From: an uncultured Actinomycetes bacterium
Lineage (GTDB): Bacteria > Actinomycetota > Thermoleophilia > Gaiellales > JALYLC01
Length of the DNA stretch: 64,000 bases
Direction of reading: 5' to 3'
Assembly: GCA_963794695.1 (NCBI GenBank)
Contig: CAWCFJ010000007.1
Span: 44,310-108,309 of the forward strand
The notes beneath the pieces are model-generated. The model saw only the letters and a list, made by a program, of their open reading frames with translations. It was not told the DNA's origin and did not search any database. Shown in pieces: positions 9,901 to 53,898 of this stretch. The position numbers were made by a program, and so were the translations under genes. The number at the start of each line of letters is the position of its first letter. The stretch's first letter is position 1.

Positions 9901-10032
9901 CGATCGGCTCCTTCGGAGGTCTCGCCGGCCAGGCGCTCGTCGGAGGCCGGCTGATCGACAGCCGCGACCCTACGGGCGCCGCTCGGATCCTGCGAACTGG
10001 CCGACCGGCCGAAATCAGTCTGGACGAAACGA

Positions 10033-10889
10033 TTAGGTAGGGCGGACCCCGTAGCGCGCCGCGTGGGCCACCGTCTGGCGCGCGCTGCGCACCAGCGCCG
10101 CGTCGACGAACGCGCCGTCGGCGAGGGCGATCGCGCCGACGTGCGCCCGCTCGGCGGCGGCGAAGCGGGCCAGGAGCTCGCGGGCCCGCACGACCTCGTC
10201 GGCGGCCGGCAGGTAGGCCGCCTCGATGACCGGGAGCTGGCGCGGGTGGATCGCCGACCGGCCCAGGTGGCCCAGCGCCCGGCCGCGCTCGCAGGAGCGG
10301 GCGAGGCCGGCGTCGTCGTCGCGGTGCGGGAAGACCGACTGCGGCGGGCGGGGGAGGCCCGCGGCGACGGCGGCGTTGACGATCCGGCTGCGGGCCCAGT
10401 CGAGCCCCTCCTCGGTGGCGCCGAGCTCGGCCCGAAGGTCGCTCTCGCCGAGCGAGAGGCCGGCCAGGCGCGGGCTGCACGACGCGATCTCGAACGCGGC
10501 CTCGACGCCGCGGGCGGACTCGACGAGGCAGTGCACCGCGAGCTCCGGCGCGCCGGCGGCGTCGAGCAGGTCGAGCACGGCCTCGACGTCGTCGGGGCTC
10601 TCGACCTTCGGAAGGTGGATCCGGTCGAGCTGGGGGAGCCGGGCCACCGCCTCGAGATCGGCCCGGCCGAACGCGTCGACAGCGGGTTGACGCGGACGCT
10701 GACCGGCTTCTCGGGGGCGTTGGTGAGCAGGCCGGAGAGCGCGTCGCGGGCGGCCTCCTTGAGCGACGGCGCCACCGCGTCCTCGAGGTCGACGATGACC
10801 GCGTGCGCCCGCGAGTCCAGCGCCTTGGCCACCAGCTCGGGCCGGCTCGCCGGGGCGTACAGCCAGGTCAGGGGCGGGAGCTCGGTCAC
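10033..10889 (-). CDS. HpcH/HpaI aldolase / citrate-lyase beta (CitE-like, citryl-/malyl-CoA lyase) family protein, frameshift near 10690
   Basis: N-terminal LTWLYAPASRPELVAKALDSRAHAVIVDLEDAV is in one frame. C-terminal ...DRIHLPKVESPDDVEAVLDLL...CLVESARGVEAAFEIA is in another. The GTG start at 10889 overlaps the stop of the upstream CoA-transferase gene (GTGA). Confidence 0.65.
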
Positions 10890-12081
10890 GCGACGACGCC
10901 GTCCCTGCGCAGCCGGTCGATCGCCTCGGCGTCGAGCCCGGCCTCGGCGAGCACGGCGTCGGTGTCGGCGCCGTGGGCCCGGCCGGTCCAGCGGATCGTG
11001 CCCGGCGTGTCCGAGAGCCGGGCCAGCACGTTCGGCATCCGCAGCGGGCCGAGCTGCTCGTCCTCGACCCGGGCGATGGCCCCGATCGCGGCGAGCTGGG
11101 GATCCTCGACGATGTCGCTCGCGTCGTACACCGGCGCCACCGCCGCGTCGGCCTCCTCGAACGCCTGCAGCACCTCGCTCGCGCGAGCGGGCGCCGATCC
11201 AGGCCGCCACCGCGCCGTCGATCTCCTCGACGTGGGCCACCCGGCCCGAGCCGGTGGCGAACCACGGCTGCGTCGACGAGGTCGCCGCGGCCGACGAGCC
11301 GCAGCACCCGGGCGGCGACGCTGTCGGCGCTCGAGGAGACGGCCACCCAGTGCCCGTCGGCGGTCGCGTAGACGTTGCGCGGCGCGTTGTGGCGCGAGCG
11401 GTTGCCGCTGCGCGGCTGCAGCACCCCGAGCTGGTCCCAGGCCGAGACCTGGGGCCCGAGCAGCCCGAGCAGCGGCTCGATCAGCGACACGTCGACCTCC
11501 TGGCCCTCGCCGCCGGCGTCGCGGGCCCGCAGCGCCGCCAGGATCGCGAACGCCGTCGCCAGCGCGGCCACGCCGTCGGCCAGCGCCAGCGGCGGCAAGA
11601 GCGGCGGGCCGTCGGCCTCGCCGTTCAGCGCAGCGAACCCGCTCATGGCCTCGGCCAGCGTCCCGAAGCCCGGCCGGCCGGCGTAGGGCCCGGTCTGGCC
11701 GAACCCCGTGACCCGGGCCAGGACGAGCCCGCGGTTGTCGCGCCTGAGCTCCGGAAAGCCGAGCCCCCAGCGCTCGAGCGTGCCGGGCCGGAAGTTCTCG
11801 ATGACCACGTCGGCCCGGCTCGCGAGCCGCAGGAACACGTCGCGCCCGGCGGGCTTCGACAGGTCGACCGCCGCGAGCCGCTTGTTGCGCCCGAGCATCT
11901 TGAACCACAGGCCTGCGCCGTCCTTGGCCGGGCCGTGGCCGCGCGCCGGGTCGGGTCGGGACGGGTGCTCGATCTTGACCACGTCCGCGCCGAGGTCGCC
12001 CAGGAACATGCCCGCCAGCGGTCCGGCGAACAGGGTCGCCGCCTCGACGACCCGGAGCCCTTCGAGAGGTCCGGCGCTCAC
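10886..12081 (-). CDS. CaiB/BaiF family (class III) CoA-transferase, two indels near 11200-11260
   Basis: LEGLRVVEAATLFAGPLAGMFLGDLGADVVKIE near the N-terminus. C-terminal ...EVLQAFEEADAAVAPVYDASDIVEDPQLAAIGAI.... The central block AHVEEIDGAVAAWIGARSRER is only found in the third frame. Confidence 0.7.
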
Positions 12082-14031
12082 GTCGGCGGCTCGAGGTCGA
12101 CGGCCAGCCGGAAGCCGATCCACGGCGAGCGCTGCAGCTCGCCGCCGAGCAGCAGCAGCTCGAGCGACCAGGACGGCTCCTGCGGGCCGCCGTCGACGTA
12201 CCAGTCGGAGCCCTCGGCGCGATACCCCGACCCGCCCTTGAGGATCGCGAAGCGCGTCCGCCCGTCGTGGTGCTCGCTCTCGGTCCAGTTCCAGACGCGG
12301 GGCTCGGCGCGCTCGAGGACGCCGGCCTCGGCGGCGAGCTGCCACTCGTCCTCGGTCGGCAGCCGGGCGCCGGCCCAGACGGCGTAGGCTCGGGCCTCGG
12401 CCAGCTCGACGTTCGTCGCCGGCGCGTCGGGCGGGCCGCTCGGAGGCCGCCCGCTGAACCGGGCGAGCTCGGCTGCGGTCACCTCGCGCGCGGCGACGGC
12501 GACCCGGCCGAAGAGCTGGTTGGGCCCGGGTCGCGGGACCTCGACCAGGTCGTGCAGCCGGGGCGGCAGCGGCTTCCACTCCTCGACGTACGGCGCGACC
12601 CCGTAGATGCCGGTCTCGCGGCGGCGGAACACGGCGGTGAGCGGACGCGGCTCGACCGCAGCGAACCCCGGCGGCGGCTGGCGCCAGGCCGCGCGCGGGG
12701 TCGGCAGGCGCACGACCTCGCGGGCCGGGAAGGCCCGGTCGCCGGGCGGGTCGGCACGCAGCGCGTCAAGGTCGACCGCCAGCTCGGGCGGGAGGGCCAG
12801 CAGCGCGCCCAGGCCGTGCTCCGGGAGCTCGACCGCGACCCGCTCGGCGGCGACCAGCTCGCGGCCGGCGAAGAGGTCGTACAGCCGGTGCCCCTCGGGC
12901 AGGCCGTCGAGCAGCAGCTCGCCGCGGAAGGCGCCCGCCGGCGCTCGTCGCGAGCGTCCACAGGACCCCGCCGGAGCCGGCGAAGCGGGAGCCGACGACC
13001 GCCGGCCGCGACGGCTCCGCCGAGCGCACCGCGAGCGGCTCCCAGTCGCCGTCGGTCAGCAGGTCGGCGAAACGGCGCTGCACCCGCAGCATCGAGCGCA
13101 GCAGCGAGGCGTCGCGCTCGCTCCAGCCGACCCACGAGCCGAACACGTTCTCCCACACGAGCACCCCGACGCCGTTCAGCCAGGCGCTCCGCAGCTCCTC
13201 GGCGTGGTCGCGGTTCCAGCGCCGGGTGTGGCGGAGCAGGTGGCGCTGCTCGAACCAGCGCGCCCGCAGCACGCCCGGCACCGGGCTGTCGGCGACCCAC
13301 TGGGCCCACGACAGGTGGTGGTCGGCGATCCGCTCGCACGGCACGCTCGACTCCCCCTCGAAGGCCACGCCCGGCCGGGCGGCGTCCACCGCGGCGCGGA
13401 GCTCCGGGCGGGCCTCGCGCAGCGTGTCGAGCATGACCCCGTCGGCGCCGAGCCAGGCCACGACGTCGGCCACCGCCTGCTCGTCGGGCATGCCGGAGCG
13501 CCGGGTGCCGACGTCCCACGGGTTGTAGTCCAGGAACACCCGCACCCCGTGGTCCTGCAGGTGGGCGACCAGCTCGGGCAGCCCCGGGACGCCGCGGTAC
13601 AGGTCGAACTGGTTGCGCTCGTCGATCCCGATGACCGGGTAGGCGTGCCACAGCACGATCCCGTCGTACCCGCCGAACCGCCGCTCGCCGTCGCGAAGGA
13701 AGCGATCGGGCGTGAACGTGCGCTCCTCGTGGTCGTACAGCAGCTCGTCCCACAGCCAGGCCAGGGCGACGCACAGGCAGCGCGGCGTCCAGGCGAAGGC
13801 CGGGTCGCGGTACGCGGCGCCGTCGTAGCCCGTGCGGGCCCGGGCCTCGTCGCGCCAGCGGCGGAGGGCCGCACGCCAGGCGGGCCAGTCGGCGACGGCG
13901 TCGGGTGCGGCCAGGATCTTGGCCCGGTCGAGCACCGCCAGGTCGGCGTCCGGCTCGAGCGGCACGGCCGTCGGCAGGTCGACCGGGCGCGGAACGAGCG
14001 GGTCGCGCGGGGCGTCCATGGCCAGGGTCAT
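12078..14031 (-). CDS. Two-domain protein: N-terminal hydrolase-like domain of unassigned family fused to a C-terminal FGE-sulfatase (SUMF1/EgtB/PvdO-like) domain, frameshift near 12770-12900
   Basis: The ATG at 14031 overlaps the stop of the upstream ARH gene (ATGA). N-terminal part ...GIVLWHAYPVIGIDERNQFDLYRGVPGLPELVAHLQDHGVRVFLDYNPWDVG...GVMLDTL... reads as a TIM-barrel-like hydrolase. C-terminal part AYAVWAGARLPTEDEWQLAAEAG...RVWNWTESEH...LKGGSGYRAEGSDWYVDGGP...WIGFRLAV matches the FGE C-terminal signature. Its stop overlaps the CaiB start. Confidence 0.55.
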
Positions 14032-15330
14032 GCGGCCACCAGCAGCGTCCGCTCGGCCAGCGCCGCGATGGACGCGCCGTCGAAGCCGGGGAGCGAGGTG
14101 GCGATGCGGTCGCGCAGCGGCGCCGTCCAGCACTCGGGGATGCCGGAGGCACCGACCCGGGCGCCGAGGATGGAGCCCACGGCGGCGCCGTTCGAGTCCG
14201 TGTCCCAGCCGGCCGCCACGGCGGCGCAGATCGCCGCCCGAGTAGTCGTCGCCGAAGCGGCACAGCACCGCCGCGACGAGCGCGGTGTTGTTGATCGCGT
14301 GCACCCAGTGCAGCTCGCCGAACGCCTGCTCGAGCCCGTCGACGACCCGCTCCCAGTCCGCGTCGCTCTCGGCCAGCGCGCGGGCCGTGCGGATCGCGCC
14401 GGCGAGCCGGGAGCGCGGCGGCACCGCCTCGAGCCCGGCCTCGACGCAGCTCGCGGGCGTCGCGCCGGCCACGGACGCCGCGCTCGCGGCAGCCATGAAG
14501 GTGGCCGCGGAGATCCCGTTGGCGGTGTGGCTCAGCCGCGCGTCGCGGTACGCCAGCGCGGCGGCTGCGCCCGGGTTGCCGGGGCGGGCCCAGCCGTACA
14601 GCTCGACCCGGATCCGGGCGCCGATCCACTCCCGGAACGGGTTCCTGTAGGTCGCCGTCTCGGGCGGCAGAAGGCCCAGCAGGAGGTTGCGGTAGGCGAG
14701 CCGCTCGGCGGTGAACGAGCGACCGGCCGGCATCAGGTCGAGCCACGCCTGGGCCACGTCCTCGGTCGTCAGCGCGTCGCCGTGCTGCTCGAGCAGGTGC
14801 AGCGCCAGCAGCGTGTAGTTGAGGTCGTCGTCCTCGGGCATGCCGTCGATCGTCTCGGCCAGGCTCGTCGCGGCGCTGCGGCGGTTCCAGGGCCAGCGGG
14901 CGGCGACCTCGGCGGGCAGGCCGCGGGCCGTGAACCAGCCGTCGAGCGGCCAGCGGCCCGACGCCTGGAGCAGCTCCCGGATGCCCTCGCGCGGGAGCTT
15001 CTCGACCGGCTTTCCGAGCAGGCAGCCGGCGGCCCGGCCGAGCCAGGCGCCGTGGATCCGGTCGCCGAGATCCGTCGGGGAGGAGCCGCCGGACGCCCCG
15101 GGAGAAGGGAGGTAGACACCCGGGGCGTCCGGCTCGTCGCCGGTCTCTGGGGAGGCTCCGGCGGCAAGCTCGTCGAGCAGCTGCTCGGCCAGGGGACGGA
15201 GGGAGCGGGAGGCGGGCGCAGACGACGCTCCGGCACGGACGGGCGCCTCGTGGCCGCCGGCGGCCCGCCAGCGCTCGGCGGCGTCGCCCACGTCGCGGCC
15301 CTCCTCGCGTGCCTGACGCAGGGCGTGGCC
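14028..15330 (-). CDS. ADP-ribosylglycohydrolase (ARH/DraG-like) family protein, copy 2, with an unusual ~100-aa Pro/Ala/Ser-rich N-terminal extension and a C-terminal frameshift near 14235
   Basis: DRIHGAWLGRAAGCLLGKPVE...NYTLLALHLLEQHGDALTTEDVAQAWL...HAINNTALVAAVLCRFGDDYS. The C-terminal end (AAGWDTDSNGAAVGSILGARVGASGIPECW...) is in the frame of ORF 14028..14219. The start is not resolved. Confidence 0.6.
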
Positions 15331-15356
15331 CACCAGGTCCTCGGGCTGGACCCAGG

Positions 15357-16580
15357 TCAGCCGCACCCGTCCCGCCCGTCGAGCGTCGCGAAGGACGCGG
15401 CGCGGGCCGCGTGCGCCGCGTCGTCGCGGGCGAAGATCTCGCGGGCCACCGCGGCCATCTCGCTGCCGGGGGCGTCGAGGTCGATCCGGCTGGCCGTCGC
15501 GACCTCGTCGGCCCAGTCGGCACGCACGCCGTCGCGCCCGGCCAGCGCGCCGGCGATCGCTCCGCCCATCGAGGCGATCGAGTCGGCGTCGCGGCCGTAG
15601 TTCACGCCGCCGAGCACCGTCTCGGCGAAGTCCCCGCCGGTGGCCACGAGCAGGCCGAGCGCCACCGGGAGCTCCTCGATCGCGTGCACCCGGCTCGGCC
15701 GTCGGGCGTCGAGCCCGGGCTGGAAGTACACCGGGCCGACGGTGTCGTACGGCTCGACCGCGGCGCGCAGCGCGGCGAGCCCGCCCTCGCGCCAGCCGTC
15801 GAGGTCGGCGGCCCGCTCGCACACGGCCTCGACGGCCGCACGGGTGCCGTCCTCGGCCCGGGCCAGGCAGGCCGTGACGACCGAGCCGACGTCGGCGCCG
15901 GGCCGCAGGGCCTCGGCGACCGCTGCGGCGAAGACGCCCGCCGCCTCGCGGCCGTAGCTCGACTGGTGCGCCCCGGCGATGTCGAGCGCCTCGCGGTAGG
16001 CGCCGGCGGCGTCTCCGGCGTTGGCGATCCCGACCGGCGCGCAGTACATCGCCGCGCCACAGTTGACGATGTTGCCGACCCCGGCCTCGCGCGGGTCGAC
16101 GTGCCCGTAGTGCAGCCGCAGGACGAGCCACTTCTCGGCCAGCGCCAGGCGGTGCAGCAGGAGCTCCTCGCGGCCGAGCTCGGGAATCCAGATTCGCTCT
16201 CCGATCAGCTCGGGCACCAGCAGCCGCTCGACGTCGTAGGCGCCCAGGTGGTCGCGCTTCTGCGCGTACACCCGCACCAGCGCGCGCGTCACCAGGGTGT
16301 CGTCGGTGACGTGCCCGTCGCCCTTGTGGAACGGCGCCAGCGGCCGGTCGTCGAGGGCGTGGGTCATCGACGGCACGACGCCTTCGACGAACCCGCCGTA
16401 GTGCTCGACGATGTCCGCCTGGCCCCGGCCCTCGGTGGCGCCGCCGAGGGCGTCGCCGATCGCCGCGCCGACGAGGCAGCCGCGGGCCCGACCCTCGAGG
16501 TCGAGCCCCGAACGAGCCTCGGTGGCGAGGGCCTTCACGCCCTCGCCACTCGTGTGGCTCCCGTTGCCGTCAGCCGGCAA
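15357..16580 (-). CDS. ADP-ribosylglycohydrolase (ARH/DraG-like) family protein, copy 1
   Basis: Intact 407-aa ORF. CLVGAAIGDALGGATEG, GNIVNCGAAMYCAPVG and VNYGRDADSIASMGGAIAGALAG are the ARH metal-binding motifs. Confidence 0.75.
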   Translation of the reverse strand: MPADGNGSHTSGEGVKALATEARSGLDLEGRARGCLVGAAIGDALGGATEGRGQADIVEHYGGFVEGVVPSMTHALDDRPLAPFHKGDGHVTDDTLVTRALVRVYAQKRDHLGAYDVERLLVPELIGERIWIPELGREELLLHRLALAEKWLVLRLHYGHVDPREAGVGNIVNCGAAMYCAPVGIANAGDAAGAYREALDIAGAHQSSYGREAAGVFAAAVAEALRPGADVGSVVTACLARAEDGTRAAVEAVCERAADLDGWREGGLAALRAAVEPYDTVGPVYFQPGLDARRPSRVHAIEELPVALGLLVATGGDFAETVLGGVNYGRDADSIASMGGAIAGALAGRDGVRADWADEVATASRIDLDAPGSEMAAVAREIFARDDAAHAARAASFATLDGRDGCG

Positions 16581-17850
16581 CCGAGTCCCATCCCGACTTC
16601 AGCTTCGCGCCGAGGTCGCTCAGGCTCATCTGGTTCTGGAAGTACTGCTGGAACGCGGGCGTGGCCGTGTCGTCCTTCCACTGCGGGTAGGCGGCGAGGT
16701 TCTGGAACGGCGCCACCTCCAGGGTCTTGAGCGAGGCGATCATGACACGCCAGGCGCCCCGGTTCTTGGTCGTCGCGAGCACCTTCTTGCCGGCCGCCGG
16801 GTTCGACGGGATGAGCCAGTCGCCCGTGGCCAGCTTGGCCATGTTCTGGGCGTTCAGGAAGTAGGCGATGAACTGCATCGCCTCGGCCTTGTGCTTGCTC
16901 TGCTGGGCGATCGAGAGCGTCTGCGGATCGGCCGCCTGGGCCTGGGTGACGCCCTTGAGCGGCGGCAGCATCACCCAGCCGAAGCCCGCGGGAGCCTGCT
17001 CGACCATCTGCTGCGCGGCGTAGGAGCCCTGCATGGTCATCGCCGTCTTGCTGGCGAAGAACGCGGGCAGCACCGCGCTGCCGGACGCGCCGACGCTGCT
17101 CGGGTCGACCGACTTGTCGGTCCAGATCATGTCGTGGATCAGCTGCGGCACCTTCTGCTCGGCCGCGCCCCACTTGAACTGGTACTTCGAGCCGCTCGGG
17201 TAGAAGAACTTGCCGTTGTAGTTCAGCGCCGTCGAGAGCACCGCGGCGGTCGGCGACTTGAGGCCCCAGCTGACGCCGTACACGCCGCTCCGGGTCAGCT
17301 TCTTGGCGTTCGCCCGGAACTGGGCCCAGGTCCAGGGATCGTTCTCCGTCGGCACGGCGATCCCGGCCTGCTTCAGGAGCGTCGCGTTCGCGAACAGGTT
17401 GTAGGTCTGCAGCAGGAACGGGACGCCCGCGACCTTGTGGTTGAAGGTCACCGACGACCAGATGTTCTGCGGGATGCTGGACGTCAGCTCGGACGAGCGC
17501 AGCTTGCTCAGATCGGCCAGGTAGCCCTGCTGGGCGAACCCGCGGATGTCGGCCGCCTCGTCGTGGATGATGTCCGGCGCAGAGCCGCCGACGAAGCTCG
17601 TCAGGAGCTTGTCGTGCACCGAGTCCCAGTCGCCCTGCACGTACTGCACCTGGATGCTCGGGTGGCTCTTGTTCCAGGCGTTGACGATCGCCTGGTTGGC
17701 GGCCACGGTCGGCTTCTGCCAGGCCAGGCTCTGGAAGGTCAGCTTGACCGTTGCCTGGCCGCTGGACGACGCGCCTTGAGCCGCCGTCACGACGCTGACC
17801 GCACACGCAAGCGCTGCGGCGGTCAGGCCGATCGTCCTCCTCCTCTTCAT
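16570..17850 (-). CDS. ABC transporter substrate-binding protein (extracellular solute-binding family 1, carbohydrate type)
   Basis: Signal peptide MKRRRTIGLTAAALACAVSVVTAAQGASSSGQ. Typical sugar-binding-protein length and composition. Heads the transporter block of this operon. Confidence 0.8.
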   Translation of the reverse strand: MKRRRTIGLTAAALACAVSVVTAAQGASSSGQATVKLTFQSLAWQKPTVAANQAIVNAWNKSHPSIQVQYVQGDWDSVHDKLLTSFVGGSAPDIIHDEAADIRGFAQQGYLADLSKLRSSELTSSIPQNIWSSVTFNHKVAGVPFLLQTYNLFANATLLKQAGIAVPTENDPWTWAQFRANAKKLTRSGVYGVSWGLKSPTAAVLSTALNYNGKFFYPSGSKYQFKWGAAEQKVPQLIHDMIWTDKSVDPSSVGASGSAVLPAFFASKTAMTMQGSYAAQQMVEQAPAGFGWVMLPPLKGVTQAQAADPQTLSIAQQSKHKAEAMQFIAYFLNAQNMAKLATGDWLIPSNPAAGKKVLATTKNRGAWRVMIASLKTLEVAPFQNLAAYPQWKDDTATPAFQQYFQNQMSLSDLGAKLKSGWDSVAG

Positions 17851-17899
17851 GTCTCCCCGTGCCCTTTCTGTCGGGCGGCGACCGGGTGGCCGCCGCCGA

Positions 17900-18751
17900 T
17901 TACCCCTTGACGGCCCCCGAGAGCAGCCCGCCGGTGAGCCAGCGCTGCATCACCCCGAAGAACACGAGGCTCGGCAGCGTCGCGAGCAGCGCGGCGGCTG
18001 CCAGCGGCCCGAGGCGCGGGATGCCCTCGATCCCCACGAACTGCGCGAGGGTGACGGGCAGGGTCGTCAGCGACGGGTCCTGCAGCAGCACCAGCGCGAA
18101 GAAGAACTCGTTCCAGGCCAGGACGAACGCGAACATCACCGTGACGATCACGCCCGGCAAGAGCAGCGGGGCGATCACGTGGATCAGGATCTGCATCCGC
18201 GACGCCCCGTCCACGGCGGCCGCGTCCTCGAGGTCGGTCGGGATCCCGCGGATGTAGGTCTGCAGCATCCAGAGCGTGAACGGCAGCGCCCAGACCAGGT
18301 ACACGAGCACGAGTCCGGTGTGGGTGTTCGTCAGCTGGAGCCGCCGCAGGAGCAGGAACAGCGGGATGATCACCAGGATCAGCGGGAAGACCTGGGTGAG
18401 CAGGATCCAGCCCGTGCCGAGCCGGCTCAGCAGCCCCTTGTGGCGCGCCAGGACGTACGCCGCCGGCAGGCCGAAGAGCGTCGTGAGGAGCGCGGTCGCG
18501 AGCGAGATCTTGGTGCTGTTGACGGCGCTCGTGACGAGCCGGTCGGTGTCGAGCGCCTCGCGGTAGTTCGCGAGCGACAGGCTGTCGGGCAGGAACGAGG
18601 GGTGCAGCTCGACGAGCTCCCGCGGCCCCTTGAACGAGATGGACAGCATCCACAGCAGCGGGAAGGCCAGGAACAGCATGTACACGGCCAGCAGCGCGTA
18701 CTGGCTGGTGCGCGCGGCGCGCCGTTGACGGCGGCTGGTGACGATCATGCC
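17900..18751 (-). CDS. Carbohydrate ABC transporter permease (MalG-like)
   Basis: Real part starts MIVTSRRQRRAARTSQYALLAVYMLFLAFPLLWML.... It carries the EAA-like loop DLEDAAAVDGASRMQILIHVIAPL. Confidence 0.8.
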   Translation of the reverse strand, partial: GMIVTSRRQRRAARTSQYALLAVYMLFLAFPLLWMLSISFKGPRELVELHPSFLPDSLSLANYREALDTDRLVTSAVNSTKISLATALLTTLFGLPAAYVLARHKGLLSRLGTGWILLTQVFPLILVIIPLFLLLRRLQLTNTHTGLVLVYLVWALPFTLWMLQTYIRGIPTDLEDAAAVDGASRMQILIHVIAPLLLPGVIVTVMFAFVLAWNEFFFALVLLQDPSLTTLPVTLAQFVGIEGIPRLGPLAAAALLATLPSLVFFGVMQRWLTGGLLSGAVKG

Positions 18752-19677
18752 GTCTCCCGGAAGCGCCGCCAGAGGTAGGCCGAGAGGATGATCGCGATGA
18801 CGATCACCATCAGATCGCCGAGCGCCGCGGCGTAGCCGAACTGGCCGTACTTGAAGGCCTCGTCGTAGGCGAACAGCATCGGCACCCGGGTCTTGCCGCC
18901 GGGCCCGCCGTCGGTGAGGACGTACAGCAGGCCGAACGAGTTGAAGTTCCAGACGAAGTCCAGCGTGGTGATGGCGACGATCACGCCGGCGAGCTGGGGG
19001 AGGGTCACGCTGCGGAAGCGGCGCAGCGCGCCGGCGCCGTCGACCGCGGCCGCCTCGTGCAGCTCGTCCGGCATCGTCTGCAGCCCGGCGAGCAGGGCGA
19101 CGGTGGTCTGCGGCATCCCGGCCCACACGCCGACCAGGATCGCCGCCGGCAGGGCCAGGCTGAAGTCGGCCAGCCAGTCGGTCGTCGAGCCCGGCAGGTG
19201 GGTGCGGAAGAGGATCTCGTTGAGGACGCCCGCCTGCTGCTGGTAGACGAGCTTCCACATGATCCCGACGATCACCGGCGGCATCGCCCAGGGCACCAGC
19301 GAGAGCGCCCGGGCGACCCCGCGGCCGCGCAGCGGGGCGTTCAGCAGGAGCGCCAGGCCGAGCGCCAGCACGAACTGGATCGCGGTCACCGAGAACGCCC
19401 AGATCAGGCCGATCTTGAACGACTCGACGAACTGGCTGTCGTTCAGGGCGGTGCGGAAGTTCTCGAGCCCGACGAAGTGCGTCTGCAGGCCGAGCCCTGC
19501 CTGGGAGTCGGTGAAGCCGAGGTAGATCCCGCGGATCAGCGGGATCGCGCTGAAGACCATGATCGGCAGCAGCGCCGGGACGACCAGCAGGATCGCCCCG
19601 CGCGACGAGAGACCGGAGCCGGCCCGGCTGCGGCGGCGGGTGCGGGGCACGCTGGCGTCGACGCCCGCGACGCTCAC
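18745..19677 (-). CDS. Carbohydrate ABC transporter permease (MalF-like)
   Basis: ...MPALLPIMVFSAIPLIRGIYLGFTDS...ELHEAAAVDGAGALRRFRSVTLP.... The GTG start at 19677 overlaps the lacI stop. Confidence 0.8.
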   Translation of the reverse strand: MSVAGVDASVPRTRRRSRAGSGLSSRGAILLVVPALLPIMVFSAIPLIRGIYLGFTDSQAGLGLQTHFVGLENFRTALNDSQFVESFKIGLIWAFSVTAIQFVLALGLALLLNAPLRGRGVARALSLVPWAMPPVIVGIMWKLVYQQQAGVLNEILFRTHLPGSTTDWLADFSLALPAAILVGVWAGMPQTTVALLAGLQTMPDELHEAAAVDGAGALRRFRSVTLPQLAGVIVAITTLDFVWNFNSFGLLYVLTDGGPGGKTRVPMLFAYDEAFKYGQFGYAAALGDLMVIVIAIILSAYLWRRFRETA

Positions 19678-20696
19678 GCGGGGATCCTGGGCGCGGAGTC
19701 GCGCACCACGAGGCGCGCCGGGTAGCGCACCCGCTGCGGCGTTCGGTCCGGCCGGCCGAGGCGGGCGAGCAGCAGGTCGGCGGCGATGCGGGCGCGATGG
19801 CCGGAGCCGAGGTCGACGCTGGTCAGCGCCGGCCAGCACAGCTCGGCGAGGTCGGTGTCGTCCATCCCGGCGATGGCCACGTCGTCGGGAACCGAGAGCC
19901 CGGCGCGGTGCAGGGCCCGCAGGCCACCTGCCGCCAGGAGGTCGTTGGCGAACAGGATCGCGTCCGGCTCGCCCCGGTGCAGGAGCCGCTCGGCGGCGGC
20001 GTAGCCGGCGTCGGCGGTGAAGTCGTCGGCGACCTCGACGAGGGCGTCGTCGCGCTCCTGGCCGGCGTCGCGCAGGCCCTCGAGGTAGCCGAGGCGGCGC
20101 TCGTGGCCTGGCAGCGTGGCGACGGGGCCGTTGACGAAGGCGATCCGGCGCCGGCCGAGCGCGTGCAGGTGGGCCACGGCCAGCCCGGCGCCGCGGCGCG
20201 AGTCGGCCTCGACGGCGTCGACGGCCAGGCCCTTCGGCAGCCGTCCGATGACCACCACCGGCGCCGCCGCCTCGCGCAGCGCCTCGGCGTGGGCCTCGGT
20301 CACGACCAGGGTGGCGATGATCAGCCCGTCGACGAAGCCCTGGCCGAGGTCGCGCACGATCTCGAGCTCGTCGGCCGCGTCGGAGCCCGTGGAGTGCAGC
20401 ACGAGCCGGCTGCCCGCCGCCGCCGCGGCTTCCTGGATGACCCGCACCATGCGCGTGTAGACCGGGTTCGCGACGTCGGGCATGGCGAACGCGATGTGGC
20501 CGGTACGCTGCGAGCGCAGGGAGCGGGCGGCGGCGTTCGGCATGTAGCCGACGCTCTCGGCGGCGGCGACGACCCGGGCGACGGTCTCGGGATGGGTCTG
20601 GATGCCGTTGAGCGCGCGGGAGGCGGTCGCGATCGAGACGTTCGCCGCGCGGGCGACGGTGCTGAGCGTGGGCTTGCGCTGGGAGGCGGCAGTCAT
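19674..20696 (-). CDS. LacI family transcriptional regulator
   Basis: N-terminal HTH TLSTVARAANVSIATASRALNG, followed by a periplasmic-binding-protein-like effector domain. Confidence 0.85.
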   Translation of the reverse strand: MTAASQRKPTLSTVARAANVSIATASRALNGIQTHPETVARVVAAAESVGYMPNAAARSLRSQRTGHIAFAMPDVANPVYTRMVRVIQEAAAAAGSRLVLHSTGSDAADELEIVRDLGQGFVDGLIIATLVVTEAHAEALREAAAPVVVIGRLPKGLAVDAVEADSRRGAGLAVAHLHALGRRRIAFVNGPVATLPGHERRLGYLEGLRDAGQERDDALVEVADDFTADAGYAAAERLLHRGEPDAILFANDLLAAGGLRALHRAGLSVPDDVAIAGMDDTDLAELCWPALTSVDLGSGHRARIAADLLLARLGRPDRTPQRVRYPARLVVRDSAPRIPA

Positions 20697-20721
20697 CGAC
20701 GGCGTCCTGTAAAGGATTCCA

Positions 20722-20733
20722 GTAATCGATTAC
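20722..20733. promoter_or_regulatory. Perfect 12-bp palindrome GTAATCGATTAC (LacI-type operator core) in the AT-rich region upstream of lacI
   Basis: The sequence reads ...cctgtaaaggattccaGTAATCGATTACagaggcgggatggttacag.... It resembles the TGNAANCGNTTNCA operator class. TGTAA-like half-sites also flank it at 20707 and 20746. Confidence 0.45.
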
Positions 20734-20790
20734 AGAGGCGGGATGGTTACAGACGCGACGGGCCGCCGTCAAGGCGTCAGGGGCGAGGGG

Positions 20791-21543
20791 TCACGCCCGC
20801 AGGACGGCCCGCAGGCCGTCGACCAGCGCGGGCTCCCAGGTCTCCCAGCCGTGGCCGCCGGCGTAGGAGCGCTGGGTCAGCGTCACGCCCGGCCGGCCGG
20901 CCAGGTCGGCGCCGACGACCAGCGCGTCGGCGGCCAGGCTCTCGTCCGTGCCGGCGGCCACGAAGGCCCGCAGGGGCAGGCCCGACGGCGGCAGGCGGCT
21001 CGGCAGCCAGGCGGCGTAGGCGTCCTCGTCGAACGGCGCGTCGCCGCGGCCGAACGCGCCGAACCGCCGGGCGTTCGAGTCGGCGTGCGGGAACGGGTCG
21101 TAGACCGCCGGGCTCAGCGCCACCAGGCCGCCGAACACCTCCGGGTGGGCCAGGGCCAGCCGCAGCGCACCGGCGCCGCCCATCGAGTAGCCGGCGGCCA
21201 CGCGGCCGTCGCGCTCGCGGAGCACCGGCCAGGCGTCCTCGACGTGGGCCACCAGATCGCGTACCAGCGCGGTCTCGACCGGCCGGCCGTGGCGGTGGGC
21301 CGAGTCGGTGTACCACGACGAGCGCTCGCTCCACGGGGCGTCGACCAGCACGCCCAGGAACGGCGGCAGGCCCGCCGCCTCGAGGGCCGGCAGCACCGGA
21401 GTCCAGCCGTGGGCGTCGTCGGTGCGCCCGTGCAGGAGGAGCACCCACGGCAGCCCCTCCCCGCCTCCGGCCGGCAGGACGGCGCGGTACGCGATCGCCT
21501 CCGAGAGGGTCGGCGAGGGAGCCTCGCAGTCGTGGACCCGCAT
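20791..21543 (-). CDS. Alpha/beta hydrolase (putative esterase family)
   Basis: LLLHGRTDDAHGW...GYSMGGAGALRLALAHPEVFGGLVALSPAV, the nucleophile-elbow GxSxG. Confidence 0.75.
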   Translation of the reverse strand: MRVHDCEAPSPTLSEAIAYRAVLPAGGGEGLPWVLLLHGRTDDAHGWTPVLPALEAAGLPPFLGVLVDAPWSERSSWYTDSAHRHGRPVETALVRDLVAHVEDAWPVLRERDGRVAAGYSMGGAGALRLALAHPEVFGGLVALSPAVYDPFPHADSNARRFGAFGRGDAPFDEDAYAAWLPSRLPPSGLPLRAFVAAGTDESLAADALVVGADLAGRPGVTLTQRSYAGGHGWETWEPALVDGLRAVLRA

Positions 21544-21618: not shown

Positions 21619-22083
21619 ATGACGACCCACCGGAGCGACTTCGACTTCTACGTCGGCACCTGGAAGATCCACAACCGCCGGCTGCGCCAGGCCCTCGCCG
21701 GCTCGACCGAGTGGTACGAGTTCGAGGCCACCGGCCGGGCCAGGAGCATCCTCGACGGCGGCGGCAACATCGACGAGTACGAGGCTCCGAGCGAGGGCCT
21801 CGTCGGCTTCACCCTGCGGGTCTTCGACCCGGAGCGGGACGAGTGGCTGCTGTACTGGGCCGGGCGCGCCGGCGGGCCGCTCGGCGCGCCCCAGGTCGGG
21901 CGGATGGAGAACGGCCGCGGCGACTTCTACGCCGACGACGTCTGGAACGGCATCCCCATCCGGGTCGTCTACCGCTGGACCGTGATCAGCCCGAACGAGG
22001 CCCGCTGGGAGCAGGCGTTCTCGACCGACGGCGGCGAGACCTGGGAGACGAACTGGATCATGGAGTCGACCCGGGTCGAGTGA
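21619..22083 (+). CDS. DUF1579-like hypothetical protein
   Basis: MTTHRSDFDFYVGTWKIHNRRL...WLLYWAGRAGG.... The family naming is tentative. Confidence 0.5.
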   Translation: MTTHRSDFDFYVGTWKIHNRRLRQALAGSTEWYEFEATGRARSILDGGGNIDEYEAPSEGLVGFTLRVFDPERDEWLLYWAGRAGGPLGAPQVGRMENGRGDFYADDVWNGIPIRVVYRWTVISPNEARWEQAFSTDGGETWETNWIMESTRVE

Positions 22084-23018
22084 GCTACGCGGCGCTGGCG
22101 CGGTGCTGCTGCGGGCTGACCCCGCGCACCCGCTTGAACGCGGTGCTCAGCGCGAACGGGCTGCCGTAGCCGACCTGCGCGGCGACCGAGCCGATGGTGG
22201 TCTCCGGGCTCGAGCAGCAGGTCGGCCGCCAGCGCCAGGCGCCAGCCGGTCAGGAACGCCATCGGCGGCTCGCCCACGAGCTCGGCGAAGCGCCGCGCCA
22301 GGGTGGCCCGCGAGACCCGGCAGGCCGTCGCCAGCGAGGCGACCGTCCAGGGGCGTTCGGGCTCCTCGTGCAGCAGCCGCAGCGCCGGGCCGACGATCGG
22401 GTCGGACGCCGCCCGGTACCAGCCGGGCGCCTCCGCCGCGGGGCGGGCGAACCAGGCGCGCAGGACGGCGATCAGGAGCAGGTCGAGCAGCCGGTCGAGC
22501 ACCGCCTCCTGCCCGGGCGCGTCCTTGACGACCTCGTCGGCGAGGAGCGGGATGAACGGGCAGTCCCACTCGTCCCGGCGCAGCACCACGAGCGGCGGAA
22601 GCGCCCGCAGGAGGCGCTGGCTGACGGCGCCGTCGAGCTGGTAGGTGCCCGTCAGCAGGACCGTCTGGCCGTCGAGCGTGTTGCCCCAGGAGCGCACGCC
22701 GAGGTCGCGCATCGACAGCTCCCGCCCGTCGGGCGTCGTGCAGCGCTGCCCGGGCAGGATCACGACCTGCGGCGGCGTCGACGGCTCGTCGGCCACCAGG
22801 TAGTGGCCCGGGCCGCGGACGACGGCCACGTCGTGCCCGGTGAGCCGCGTCCACGGGCCGTCGTCGAAGGCCAGGTGGGCGGAGCCGCGGACGACCGCCA
22901 CCAGCGTGAGCGGCGCCTCGTCCTCGATGCGCAACGACCACGGCGGCTCGAGGCTCGAGCGCAGCAGGAAGGCCCCGCGGGCCCGGGGCCCGTCGAGCAG
23001 GCCGGCGATGGCGTCCAT
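22084..23018 (-). CDS. AraC family transcriptional regulator (cupin N-domain), C-terminal frameshift near 22215
   Basis: The C-terminal HTH is restored by removing one g in 'cccggag': ...LEPETTIGSVAAQVGYGSPFALSTAFKRVRGVSPQQHRASAA*, ending at 22084. Confidence 0.7.
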
Positions 23019-52310: not shown

Positions 52311-53210
52311 TCAGCGTTCGGCTGGCAGCCGGGCCACGGCCGCCTCGGCCTCGGCCCGCGTGGGCAGGGCGCCGCGGGCCCCCAGCGCGCGGGTGGCGAG
52401 CCCGCCCACAGCGGTGGCCAGGCGCAGCGCCCGGAGCTCGTCCTCGCCGGCCGCGAGGGCCACGGCCAGGCCGGCGGTGAACGCGTCGCCGGCGCCGGTC
52501 GTGTCGACCACCTCGACCGGGATCACCGGCACGTGCAGCGGCGCCGCGCCGGGCCGGTGGAGGGTGCAGCCGCGCGCGCCGGCCGTGACGACGACCGCGC
52601 GGGCCCCGGCCTCGAGCAGCGCGTCGGCACCCTCCGAGAGCGCTGCGACCTCGTGCTCGTTCAGCGTCAGGACAGGGCGCGCCTCGAAGAGCTCGGGCAC
52701 CAGCGGACGCACCGGCGCGGCGTTGACCACCAGCGTGGCACCCGTCCGCCGGGCACCCTCGGCGGCCGCGGCGACCGCGTCGTCGAGGAGCTCCAGGTTG
52801 ACCACCACCACCGTGTCCGGCCCACCCAGCGCGTCGAGGGCCGCGGCGACCTCGCCCGCCGGCACGTCGGCGTTGGCCCCGGAGGCCACCGCGATCAGGT
52901 TCTCGCCGCGTGCGTCCACCAGGATCTCGGCGACCCCGGTCGGCAGGTCGCTCCGGCCCAGGTGCTGCAGGTGGACGCCACCGGCGTCGAGGTCGGCGTG
53001 GCAGGCCTCGCCGTGGTCGTCGCGCCCGATCCGGCCGACGAGGTGCGTCTCGGCGCCGAGCCGCGCGGCAGCCGCCGCGCAGTTCGCGCCCTTGCCGCCG
53101 AAGTGGCGCGCGAACGTGCCGCCGATCACCGTCTCGCCGGGCCGCGGCAGCGTCGGCACCTGCACGACCAGGTCCACGTTGACCGAGCCCACGACGACGA
53201 CGCGGCTCAC
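52311..53210 (-). CDS. PfkB-family carbohydrate kinase (ribokinase-like)
   Basis: The GTG at 53210 begins VSRVVVVGSVNVDLV.... ...GGKGANCAAAAARLG...VDTTGAGDAFTAG. Confidence 0.75.
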   Translation of the reverse strand: MSRVVVVGSVNVDLVVQVPTLPRPGETVIGGTFARHFGGKGANCAAAAARLGAETHLVGRIGRDDHGEACHADLDAGGVHLQHLGRSDLPTGVAEILVDARGENLIAVASGANADVPAGEVAAALDALGGPDTVVVVNLELLDDAVAAAAEGARRTGATLVVNAAPVRPLVPELFEARPVLTLNEHEVAALSEGADALLEAGARAVVVTAGARGCTLHRPGAAPLHVPVIPVEVVDTTGAGDAFTAGLAVALAAGEDELRALRLATAVGGLATRALGARGALPTRAEAEAAVARLPAER

Positions 53211-53214
53211 GCGC

Positions 53215-53898
53215 TCAGGCCGGCGTGCCGTGGACGGGGTCGACCTGGAAGGGGCGCGGCGGCGGCAGGAGCGCCTCGTCCACGCCGATCCCGAGCAGCG
53301 TCGTGCGCAGCACCGCGTCGAGCGCGCCCCGCCGGAAGCAGTCGGCACCGGCGTCGGTCTCCTTGCCCGCCATCCCCTCGACCAGCAGGAACCCCAGGCC
53401 GTAGACCCCGGCCCAGGCAGCGATCAGGCCCCGGTCGCGTTGCGACGCCTCGATGATCCCGAGCTCGATCAGCTCGTCGAAGGCCTCGAGCGCCAGGCTG
53501 CCGGCATCGGTCTGCGGCCGCCGGCGGTCCTTGCACACCGCCATGACCCGCCAGTGGGCCGAGTTGCGGACGGCGAAGTCCAGCACCGCGTCGGCGTACG
53601 CCCAGAGCACGGCGACCGTCGCGCAGGCCCCCTCGCGGCCCGCCCGGGCGGCGCTCCCGGCGACCTTCATCTCCTCGGCCAGGCGGCGCGTGCCGTCGTC
53701 CGCGACGGCGTCGAGGAGCGCCTCCTTGTCGGTGAAGTGTCGGTAGGCTGCGCTCGGCGACACACCGATCTCGCGCGCTGCCTCGCGCAGCGAGAACGCG
53801 TGCACGCCACGGGTCGACACGAGTCCCAGCGCCGCACGCATGAACGCGTTGCGGAGGTCGCCGTGGTGGTAGCTCGCTCGTGGTGCGGTGGAAGCCAT
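53215..53898 (-). CDS. TetR family transcriptional regulator
   Basis: HTH ...RAALGLVSTRGVHAFSLREAAREIGVSPSAAYRHF.... Divergent to the degraded MMPL gene. Confidence 0.8.
   Translation of the reverse strand: MASTAPRASYHHGDLRNAFMRAALGLVSTRGVHAFSLREAAREIGVSPSAAYRHFTDKEALLDAVADDGTRRLAEEMKVAGSAARAGREGACATVAVLWAYADAVLDFAVRNSAHWRVMAVCKDRRRPQTDAGSLALEAFDELIELGIIEASQRDRGLIAAWAGVYGLGFLLVEGMAGKETDAGADCFRRGALDAVLRTTLLGIGVDEALLPPPRPFQVDPVHGTPA

Follow-up and report, generated by a model that had tools for sequence, protein, structure and literature searches.

Several described systems resemble, each in part, the gene studied here. In glycoside hydrolase family 13 (GH13) of clan GH-H, exemplified by the maltogenic amylase 1SMA and the cyclic maltosyl-maltose hydrolase 5ZXG, a barrel is followed by a β-sandwich. 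The fold of formylglycine-generating enzyme (FGE) is found in FGE itself (SUMF1-type, copper-dependent), in EgtB, OvoA and SenA, and in a group around pFGE/SUMF2 with the non-catalytic PvdO, CalU17, PorK/GldK and ToxD. The rus loci of Bacteroidetes hold one or more ribokinases together with ADP-ribosylglycohydrolases, esterases, glycoside hydrolases and LacI-type regulators, and the functions listed for them include genes labelled 'FGE' (Glowacki et al., bioRxiv 10.1101/574913). The gene in question, termed the target, lies on the minus strand of a 64,000-nt stretch of contig CAWCFJ010000007.1 from an uncultured Actinomycetes bacterium. This whole stretch is called the window, and all coordinates refer to it. 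With one surplus base taken out, the target (12078..14031, minus strand) encodes one product of ~650 aa.

On balance, and with moderate confidence, the target was read as one gene, intact in life, for a cytoplasmic, glycosidase-like protein of three domains that belongs to a sugar operon and releases a pentose, probably ribose. The product has no signal peptide, in line with a cytoplasmic location. It shares with GH13 the predicted succession of barrel and β-sandwich, and a conserved Asp and a conserved Glu stand at the ends of predicted β4 and β5. Unlike GH13, it has Glu instead of Asp after β7 and an obligatory C-terminal FGE-fold domain, and its genomic partners favour a pentose over α-glucans. 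With FGE, EgtB, OvoA and SenA the target has in common PF03781 and its core motifs RLPTExEW, WEWT-like, KGGS and GFR. However, the Cu-binding cysteines and nearby sulfatase genes of FGE are missing, as are the DinB iron domain and nearby ergothioneine genes of EgtB, OvoA and SenA. The likeness to pFGE and its group lies in the absence of the FGE Cys pair, which is missing from pFGE as well. The target domain differs from this group in being shorter (~210 aa), in always standing behind a glycosidase-like barrel and in its own conserved motifs, FRRRETGxYG, EWKPLPPRLH and WNWTESEHxDGRTRF. The rus loci are the nearest published parallel, though a loose one: they share the catabolic gene mix with ribokinase, ADP-ribosylglycohydrolase and esterase, but use a SusC/D-based outer-membrane system where the target operon has an ATP-binding cassette (ABC) importer, and the Bacteroidota homologues examined here were not in rus-type loci.

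Barrel, β-sandwich and candidate active site

An AlphaFold2 model was calculated from a 50-sequence alignment, with a mean predicted local distance difference test score (pLDDT) of 82 and a predicted template modelling score (pTM) of 0.86. It divided the protein into three predicted domains. A (β/α)8 barrel (residues ~85-330; 13042..13779, minus strand) is followed by a β-sandwich (residues ~331-413; 12792..13041, minus strand), which is placed like the C-domain of α-amylase and holds the frameshift site. An FGE-fold domain of the C-type-lectin-like kind and without cysteines forms the C-terminal part (residues ~441-650; 12081..12710, minus strand). A previous interpretation of this DNA, made without database searches and called here the sequence-only reading, had described the N-terminal part as TIM-barrel-like and placed it in no named family, and had recommended structure prediction. 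Both points were borne out: the model has the barrel, and the N-terminal 355 aa had no match in Pfam (E up to 1) or NCBIfam, and the N-domain had none among PDB sequences, by phmmer or by profile (E up to 10).

In structural comparison, barrel and β-sandwich resembled GH13 (Foldseek E 3.5e-11, 10-14% identity), and the structural matches included TreS, GlgE and branching enzymes. Conservation was concentrated in the barrel. In an alignment of 40 family members, 27-59% identical to the target, G120, D123, W128, Y131, G135, D137, W172, D197, D202, W242, R271 and W293 were invariant, and D95, R139, Q141, D173, T203, E227 and N295 were at least 90% conserved. D202 follows predicted β4 (198-201) inside the segment GADGVMLDT, E227 follows predicted β5 (223-226) and E294 follows predicted β7 (289-293). 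The stretch DGVMLDT resembles DGFRxDA, region II of GH13. The predicted layout of D202, E227 and E294 is that of the retaining clan GH-H, which points to D202 as the candidate nucleophile and E227 as the candidate acid/base. On this model, the barrel would be the catalytic part of the protein and act as a retaining glycosidase.

Transferases and isomerases are also known among GH13-like folds, as the matches named above illustrate, and the conserved D/E pattern suits any retaining double-displacement chemistry. The barrel could thus be catalytic without being a hydrolase, as a glycoside phosphorylase, as a transglycosylase or isomerase in the manner of TreS and GlgE in GH13, or as a lyase, with the FGE-fold domain binding the substrate. 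We consider this unlikely, though it is the most probable of the alternatives, because the operon is catabolic in content (importer, kinase, CoA lyase), holds no phosphomutase and is fitted best by hydrolysis.

Reading frame, extra base and frame breaks

The apparent split of the target is the effect of a single extra G at ~12932. In three-frame translation, the first frame runs from the ATG at 14031 (MTLAMDAPRDPLVPRPVDLPT) and reaches ...GGVLWTLATSAGG at ~12934. The second frame holds ...FRGELLLDGLPEGHRLYDL... up to ...WIGFRLAVDLEPPT, with the stop at 12078-12080. The N-terminus MTLAMDAPRDPLVPRPVDLPT agrees with the N-termini of homologues. GC content at third codon positions (GC3) was 0.95-0.98 across both halves, with a single change of phase between ~12961 and ~12991. 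The inserted base is located at 12932..12933 (minus strand) in GGGC[G]CC and shifts the frame of the target. On the minus strand, the site reads GCC GGC GGG C[G]C CTT CCG, i.e. GCCGGCGGGC[G]CCTTCCGC. Deletion of one G restores TSAGGPFRGELLLDG, in agreement with TSAGGPFRGDVLLDG in L081, a metagenomic contig with 93.5% DNA identity over window positions 10832-16148, and with TSAGGSWRGELLLDG in the homologue P0001 (85% identity). L081 is in frame at this point without the extra G, which is also missing from all homologues.

One two-part protein interrupted by one frameshift had already been proposed in the sequence-only reading, and the continuous homologues, GC3 and L081 agree with it. The peptides quoted there were all present in the translation, and the homologues have no stop between the halves, as separate genes would. 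The frame switch itself had been placed near 12770-12900, i.e. 30-160 nt too far downstream. Position 12766 is merely where the wrong-frame open reading frame (ORF) meets a stop. A programmed frameshift was rejected, as a slippery heptamer is absent from the site and the ORF is continuous in all relatives.

The ratio of non-synonymous to synonymous differences (pN/pS) between the window and L081 was 0.12 for the part before the shift and 0.25 for the part after it, compared with 12 and 1.4 in wrong-frame controls. The low values indicate that both halves, the C-terminal one included, have been kept under purifying selection. L081 carries an extra A of its own, 38 nt upstream of the site of the extra G in the window, and the comparison of the two sequences over 5.3 kb contains 81 gap positions. 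Since the indels are independent and gaps so frequent, an error of sequencing or assembly, and not a real mutation, is the most likely source of the extra G.

Further frame breaks were found in the neighbouring genes. The upstream gene ARH1 of the ADP-ribosylglycohydrolase (ARH) family (14028..15366, minus strand) is broken by one extra G at ~14234 (TACTCGGGCG[G]CGATC), where L081 lacks the G and reads YSGAICAAVAAGWDTD in frame. The downstream gene for a family III CoA-transferase (10886..12081, minus strand) has two frameshifts at ~11177 and ~11270 and passes through three frames within ~100 nt. The gene for an HpcH/CitE-like acyl-CoA C-C lyase (10033..10883, minus strand) has one frameshift at ~10680. 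Together with the break in the target, these make five, all within the 5 kb of highest GC content (10000-15300, GC 76-79%), and none was found in the next 6 kb (15400-21500). Outside the operon, the gene for an AraC-family regulator (21969-23018, minus strand) is broken at ~22190 and loses its C-terminal helix-turn-helix region (...TTIGSVAAQVGYGSPFALSTAFKRVRGVSPQQHR). Indels are therefore not restricted to the operon.

If the insertion at 12932 were real, together with the frame breaks of the three neighbours ARH1, CoA-transferase and lyase, the target would be a true pseudogene in the decaying downstream half of its operon. The position of the five breaks at 10.0-15.3 kb, next to intact genes of the same operon at 15.4-21.5 kb, would fit, as would the broken state of the relative L081, in which ARH1 lies in three pieces. 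This explanation was judged improbable. The indels of the window and L081 occupy different positions and represent independent events, there are neither in-frame stops nor deletions, GC3 is still 0.95, and pN/pS remains low downstream of the shift. The unrelated AraC gene, 9 kb off, shows the same type of break, and the density of gap positions relative to L081 is typical of error-prone assemblies.

Public collections also contain apparent fusions of ARH with the barrel/FGE protein, P0009 (859 aa) and P0157 (847 aa). Their use as Rosetta-stone evidence was rejected. Both are artefacts, in which a +1 error in ARH1, whose N-terminal part shares the frame of the target, lets the two genes be read as one. 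The window would yield the same false ARH-target fusion as ORF 12766-16131 and is in itself a warning that single-base indels split genes and make false fusions.

FGE-fold domain and protein family

As anticipated in the sequence-only reading, the C-terminal part of the target passed the threshold of the FGE-sulfatase profile. The match to PF03781 (12270-12464, minus strand) reached 45.3 bits, well over the gathering score (23.3), with an alignment that spans profile positions 76-138 of 255 only. The structural neighbours of the domain, with the figures listed for them, were pFGE/SUMF2 (14.4), CalU17 (13.2), PorK (13.2), PvdO (12.8), SenA (12.8) and EgtB (12.3). The top match, pFGE (1Y4J), is named in its PDB entry as a paralogue of human FGE. 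The cysteines of the target are limited to residues 85, 87 and 232, with none in the C-terminal 285 aa. The CxxxxC motif between the KGGS and GFR anchors, which in FGE provides the two catalytic, Cu(I)-binding cysteines, was present in none of the family members inspected (0/42 close, 0/28 distant). The absence of the catalytic Cys pair is a feature shared with pFGE, which is catalytically inactive. A Pfam match to a DinB domain was not obtained, and the N-terminal 413 aa consist of barrel and β-sandwich. Scores with the equivalog hidden Markov models were about one tenth of the cut-offs, with 47.6 against 420 for SenA (NF041186) and 31.8 against 360 for EgtB (TIGR03440). No sulfatase gene was found among the conserved cluster neighbours, to which the search was confined.

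The database names imply a genuine oxidative enzyme of FGE or EgtB type, with the C-terminal domain as the catalyst and the barrel as an accessory. The PF03781 score above the gathering threshold, the weak partial matches to the SenA and EgtB models and the FGE fold recovered in the structural search agree with these names. Several findings speak against them: no cysteine in the domain, no CxxxxC pair in any of the 70 family members, no DinB domain and equivalog scores far below the cut-offs. Moreover, the best structural match was pFGE, the conserved cluster contains no sulfatase gene and conservation is concentrated in the barrel. A true FGE is therefore highly improbable, and the description of the domain as SUMF1/EgtB-like, which the sequence-only reading had offered together with a check of the catalytic Cys, fails as a statement of function.

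Across the wide family, conservation of the FGE-fold domain was mostly structural. The sole low-confidence loops of the model coincide with two motifs that are invariant in the actinobacterial subfamily. Loop 232-261 holds D237, H238, S241, W242, Q244, W245 and E261, and loop 479-491 corresponds to PYVEEWKPLPPR. This would suit loops that become ordered around a ligand at a domain interface. We infer that the FGE-fold domain is not an oxidase but a permanently attached ligand-binding or lid module, and it would help to form the substrate pocket.

The stitched 650-aa query retrieved more than 2,300 homologues. The best 120 were contiguous proteins of 577-859 aa with 61-85% identity (E 0 to 1e-235) and a query coverage of 98-100%, except for one at 93%. 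Most of these carry PF03781 and have the JGI names 'sulfatase modifying factor 1' or 'formylglycine-generating enzyme'. The RefSeq family name is 'SUMF1/EgtB/PvdO family nonheme iron enzyme'. By tblastn against one genome per species, relatives were present in at least 521 genomes, including Gaiellaceae, other Thermoleophilia, Micromonosporaceae, Pseudonocardiaceae, Kribbella, Leifsonia and Nocardiopsis. Used by itself, the N-terminal segment of 366 aa gave 1,524 matches with E <1e-3 among 1.84 billion cluster representatives at 50% identity. PF03781 followed on the C-terminal side in 19 of 20 diverse N-domain relatives (33-61% identical), the twentieth being a frameshift artefact. Among the N-domain relatives, no convincing standalone protein was found; the short P0131, P0140, P0152, P0154 and P0179 look truncated, P0152, P0154 and P0179 reach into the FGE-like part before they end, and P0219 is an uncertain case. 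That the window holds two separate genes, for a barrel protein and an FGE-like protein that meet at a true gene boundary, is scarcely credible: frame 0 does meet a stop at 12766, and the other frame has an ORF with a GTG start (12078-12713), but the homologues are all single polypeptides with conserved sequence through the junction, the coding signal and the conserved β-sandwich sequence go on in frame 2 from 12932, and the 50%-identity representatives include no convincing N-domain protein on its own.

The full-length homologues and the regular presence of PF03781 show that the two-part architecture is the rule of a large family. The target is an ordinary member of this mostly actinobacterial, uncharacterised family, which is probably misnamed as FGE or nonheme iron enzyme. 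The fusion had been regarded as unusual because FGE domains were held to be normally standalone or fused to DinB-like domains. Neither point stood, given the constant architecture in at least 521 species genomes and structural neighbours such as PorK, PvdO, CalU17 and ToxD. The new activity suggested on the ground of the fusion is still plausible insofar as the N-domain matches no family, but the fusion itself is common and the FGE label misleading.

Operon, conserved neighbourhood and proposed pathway

The setting in a sugar-uptake operon, also part of the sequence-only reading, was supported by an ABC importer, a LacI-type regulator and ARH genes in a conserved cluster. Based on Pfam and NCBIfam, the order on the minus strand is esterase, LacI, two permeases, solute-binding protein, ARH2, ARH1, target, CoA-transferase and lyase. 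The PF00756 esterase (20791..21543, minus strand) lies just upstream of the LacI-family regulator (19674..20696, minus strand), whose best NCBIfam match was RbsR, below cut-off. The ABC sugar importer comprises two permeases (18745-19677 and 17900-18748, minus strand) and a solute-binding protein of the SBP_bac_1 type (16570..17850, minus strand). ARH2, the second ARH-family gene (15357..16580, minus strand), is intact. The best match of the CitE-like lyase was the citramalyl-CoA lyase RipC, again below cut-off. The ATG of the target at 14031 overlaps the TGA stop of ARH1 (ATGA, 14028-14031), as the sequence-only reading had it, and at the other end the CoA-transferase begins with a GTG that overlaps the target's stop at 12078-12080 (GTGA). 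As judged from these overlaps, the target is tied to both neighbours by predicted translational coupling. ARH1 carries an N-terminal extension of ~100 aa (residues 1 to ~105; RLTWVQPEDL...) before the Pfam ARH domain, which also occurs in the Micromonospora locus L050. In comparisons with the PDB, ARH1 and ARH2 lay so far from characterised ARHs that no substrate could be derived, and ARH1 had no detectable relative among solved structures.

Conservation of the neighbourhood was assessed in a sample of 80 related loci by tblastn with the proteins of the window. Gene order and strand were the same in 67-78 loci. ARH1 was present in 78, the CoA-transferase in 75, the HpcH/CitE-like lyase in 74, ARH2 in 73, the solute-binding protein in 71 and the LacI regulator in 67. 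A ribokinase-like PfkB gene occurred in 57 of the 80 loci, mostly directly upstream of the target homologue, and the PfkB partner scored 270 bits on TIGR02152 (cut-off 300). Fusions of PfkB and target were found in two separate clusters, P0134 and P0135. The kinase also adjoins the target homologue in the metagenome locus L090 and in P0200. Outside Actinomycetota, a metagenomic relative (39% identity) shows the order AraC, PfkB, target, and on the Sphingopyxis plasmid pSFD01 the target homologue lies next to a ribokinase gene, in the company of genes for a TonB receptor, a GH127-like protein and a CoA-transferase. In the window, the nearest PfkB homologue lies ~30 kb off at ~52476-53261 (minus strand) and is 46% identical to the ribokinase of the Micromonospora cluster.

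The PF00756 esterase was adjacent to the cluster in 32 of the 80 loci and was fused to the C-terminus of the target homologue in P0123. The esterase homologue of Micromonospora L050, apparently a secreted protein, continues at its C-terminus into a long repeat region. Secreted relatives of the target, again outside Actinomycetota, carry CHB_HEX_C, Fn3_assoc, dockerin or weak, sub-threshold GH2_N domains or adjoin GH28 or GH106 genes; the domains they carry link the family to carbohydrates. The distant homologues P0228, P0164, P0181 and P0148 had no neighbours in common. When every ORF of the 80 loci was clustered de novo, antisense ORFs of high-GC DNA dominated the clusters and no further conserved partner emerged.

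In the pathway proposed from these genes, the ABC importer would take up a glycoside. The barrel of the target would cleave a glycosidic bond, with the FGE-fold domain helping to hold the substrate, while further linkages, probably ribosyl ones, would fall to the two divergent hydrolases of the ARH family. The ribokinase-like PfkB partner would phosphorylate the pentose set free, most likely D-ribose. A hydroxy-dicarboxylic acid moiety would be converted to its CoA thioester by the CoA-transferase and then be split by the CitE-like lyase. The ribose assignment, the chemistry of the barrel and the role of the FGE-fold domain are all deductions from gene content, conservation and the model. Acylated plant glycosides, rhamnogalacturonan-II furanosides (apiose, aceric acid), D-arabinan fragments and bacillithiol-like GlcN-malate were considered as substrates, and none of the tests supported them.

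Several observations weigh against the reading of the target as an intact, pentose-releasing glycosidase. E294, at the third carboxylate position of GH13, is conserved in the actinobacterial subfamily but falls short of 90% in the alignment of the wider family. In sequence, the N-domain belongs to no GH family, its identity to GH13 is just 10-14%, and the assignment of D202 and E227 relies on predicted strand ends and conservation. Five frameshifts within 5 kb and zero in the adjoining 6 kb are compatible with real decay. The cluster in the window has no ribokinase gene of its own, the Bacteroidota homologues examined have unrelated neighbours, and in a full-text literature search no characterised member of the barrel and FGE-fold family was found.

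A more far-reaching proposal is that the target represents a new glycoside hydrolase family, so far lacking a Pfam model, a solved structure and a characterised member, whose active site is completed by the permanently fused, Cys-free FGE-fold domain and which frees D-ribose or some similar pentofuranose from a natural glycoside. Soil Actinomycetota would then share a widespread, undescribed pathway with this enzyme at its centre, with the two ARHs as sugar-catabolic enzymes and the acid moiety processed by CoA-transferase and CitE-like lyase. As a whole, this proposal is tentative and rather doubtful. The interest lies in the family and the operon, not in this particular gene copy. Thousands of family entries bear the names 'formylglycine-generating enzyme', 'sulfatase modifying factor 1' or 'nonheme iron enzyme', which are probably wrong, since the catalytic cysteines of FGE and the iron domain of EgtB are absent. 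Should the protein prove to be a glycosidase, a CAZy-type family of its own would be defined, unusual for its obligatory accessory domain, and ARH-family proteins would gain a role in nutrient breakdown if the proposed pathway is true. The family marks a putative catabolic pathway of nine to eleven genes, frequent among soil actinomycetes such as Gaiellaceae and Micromonosporaceae.

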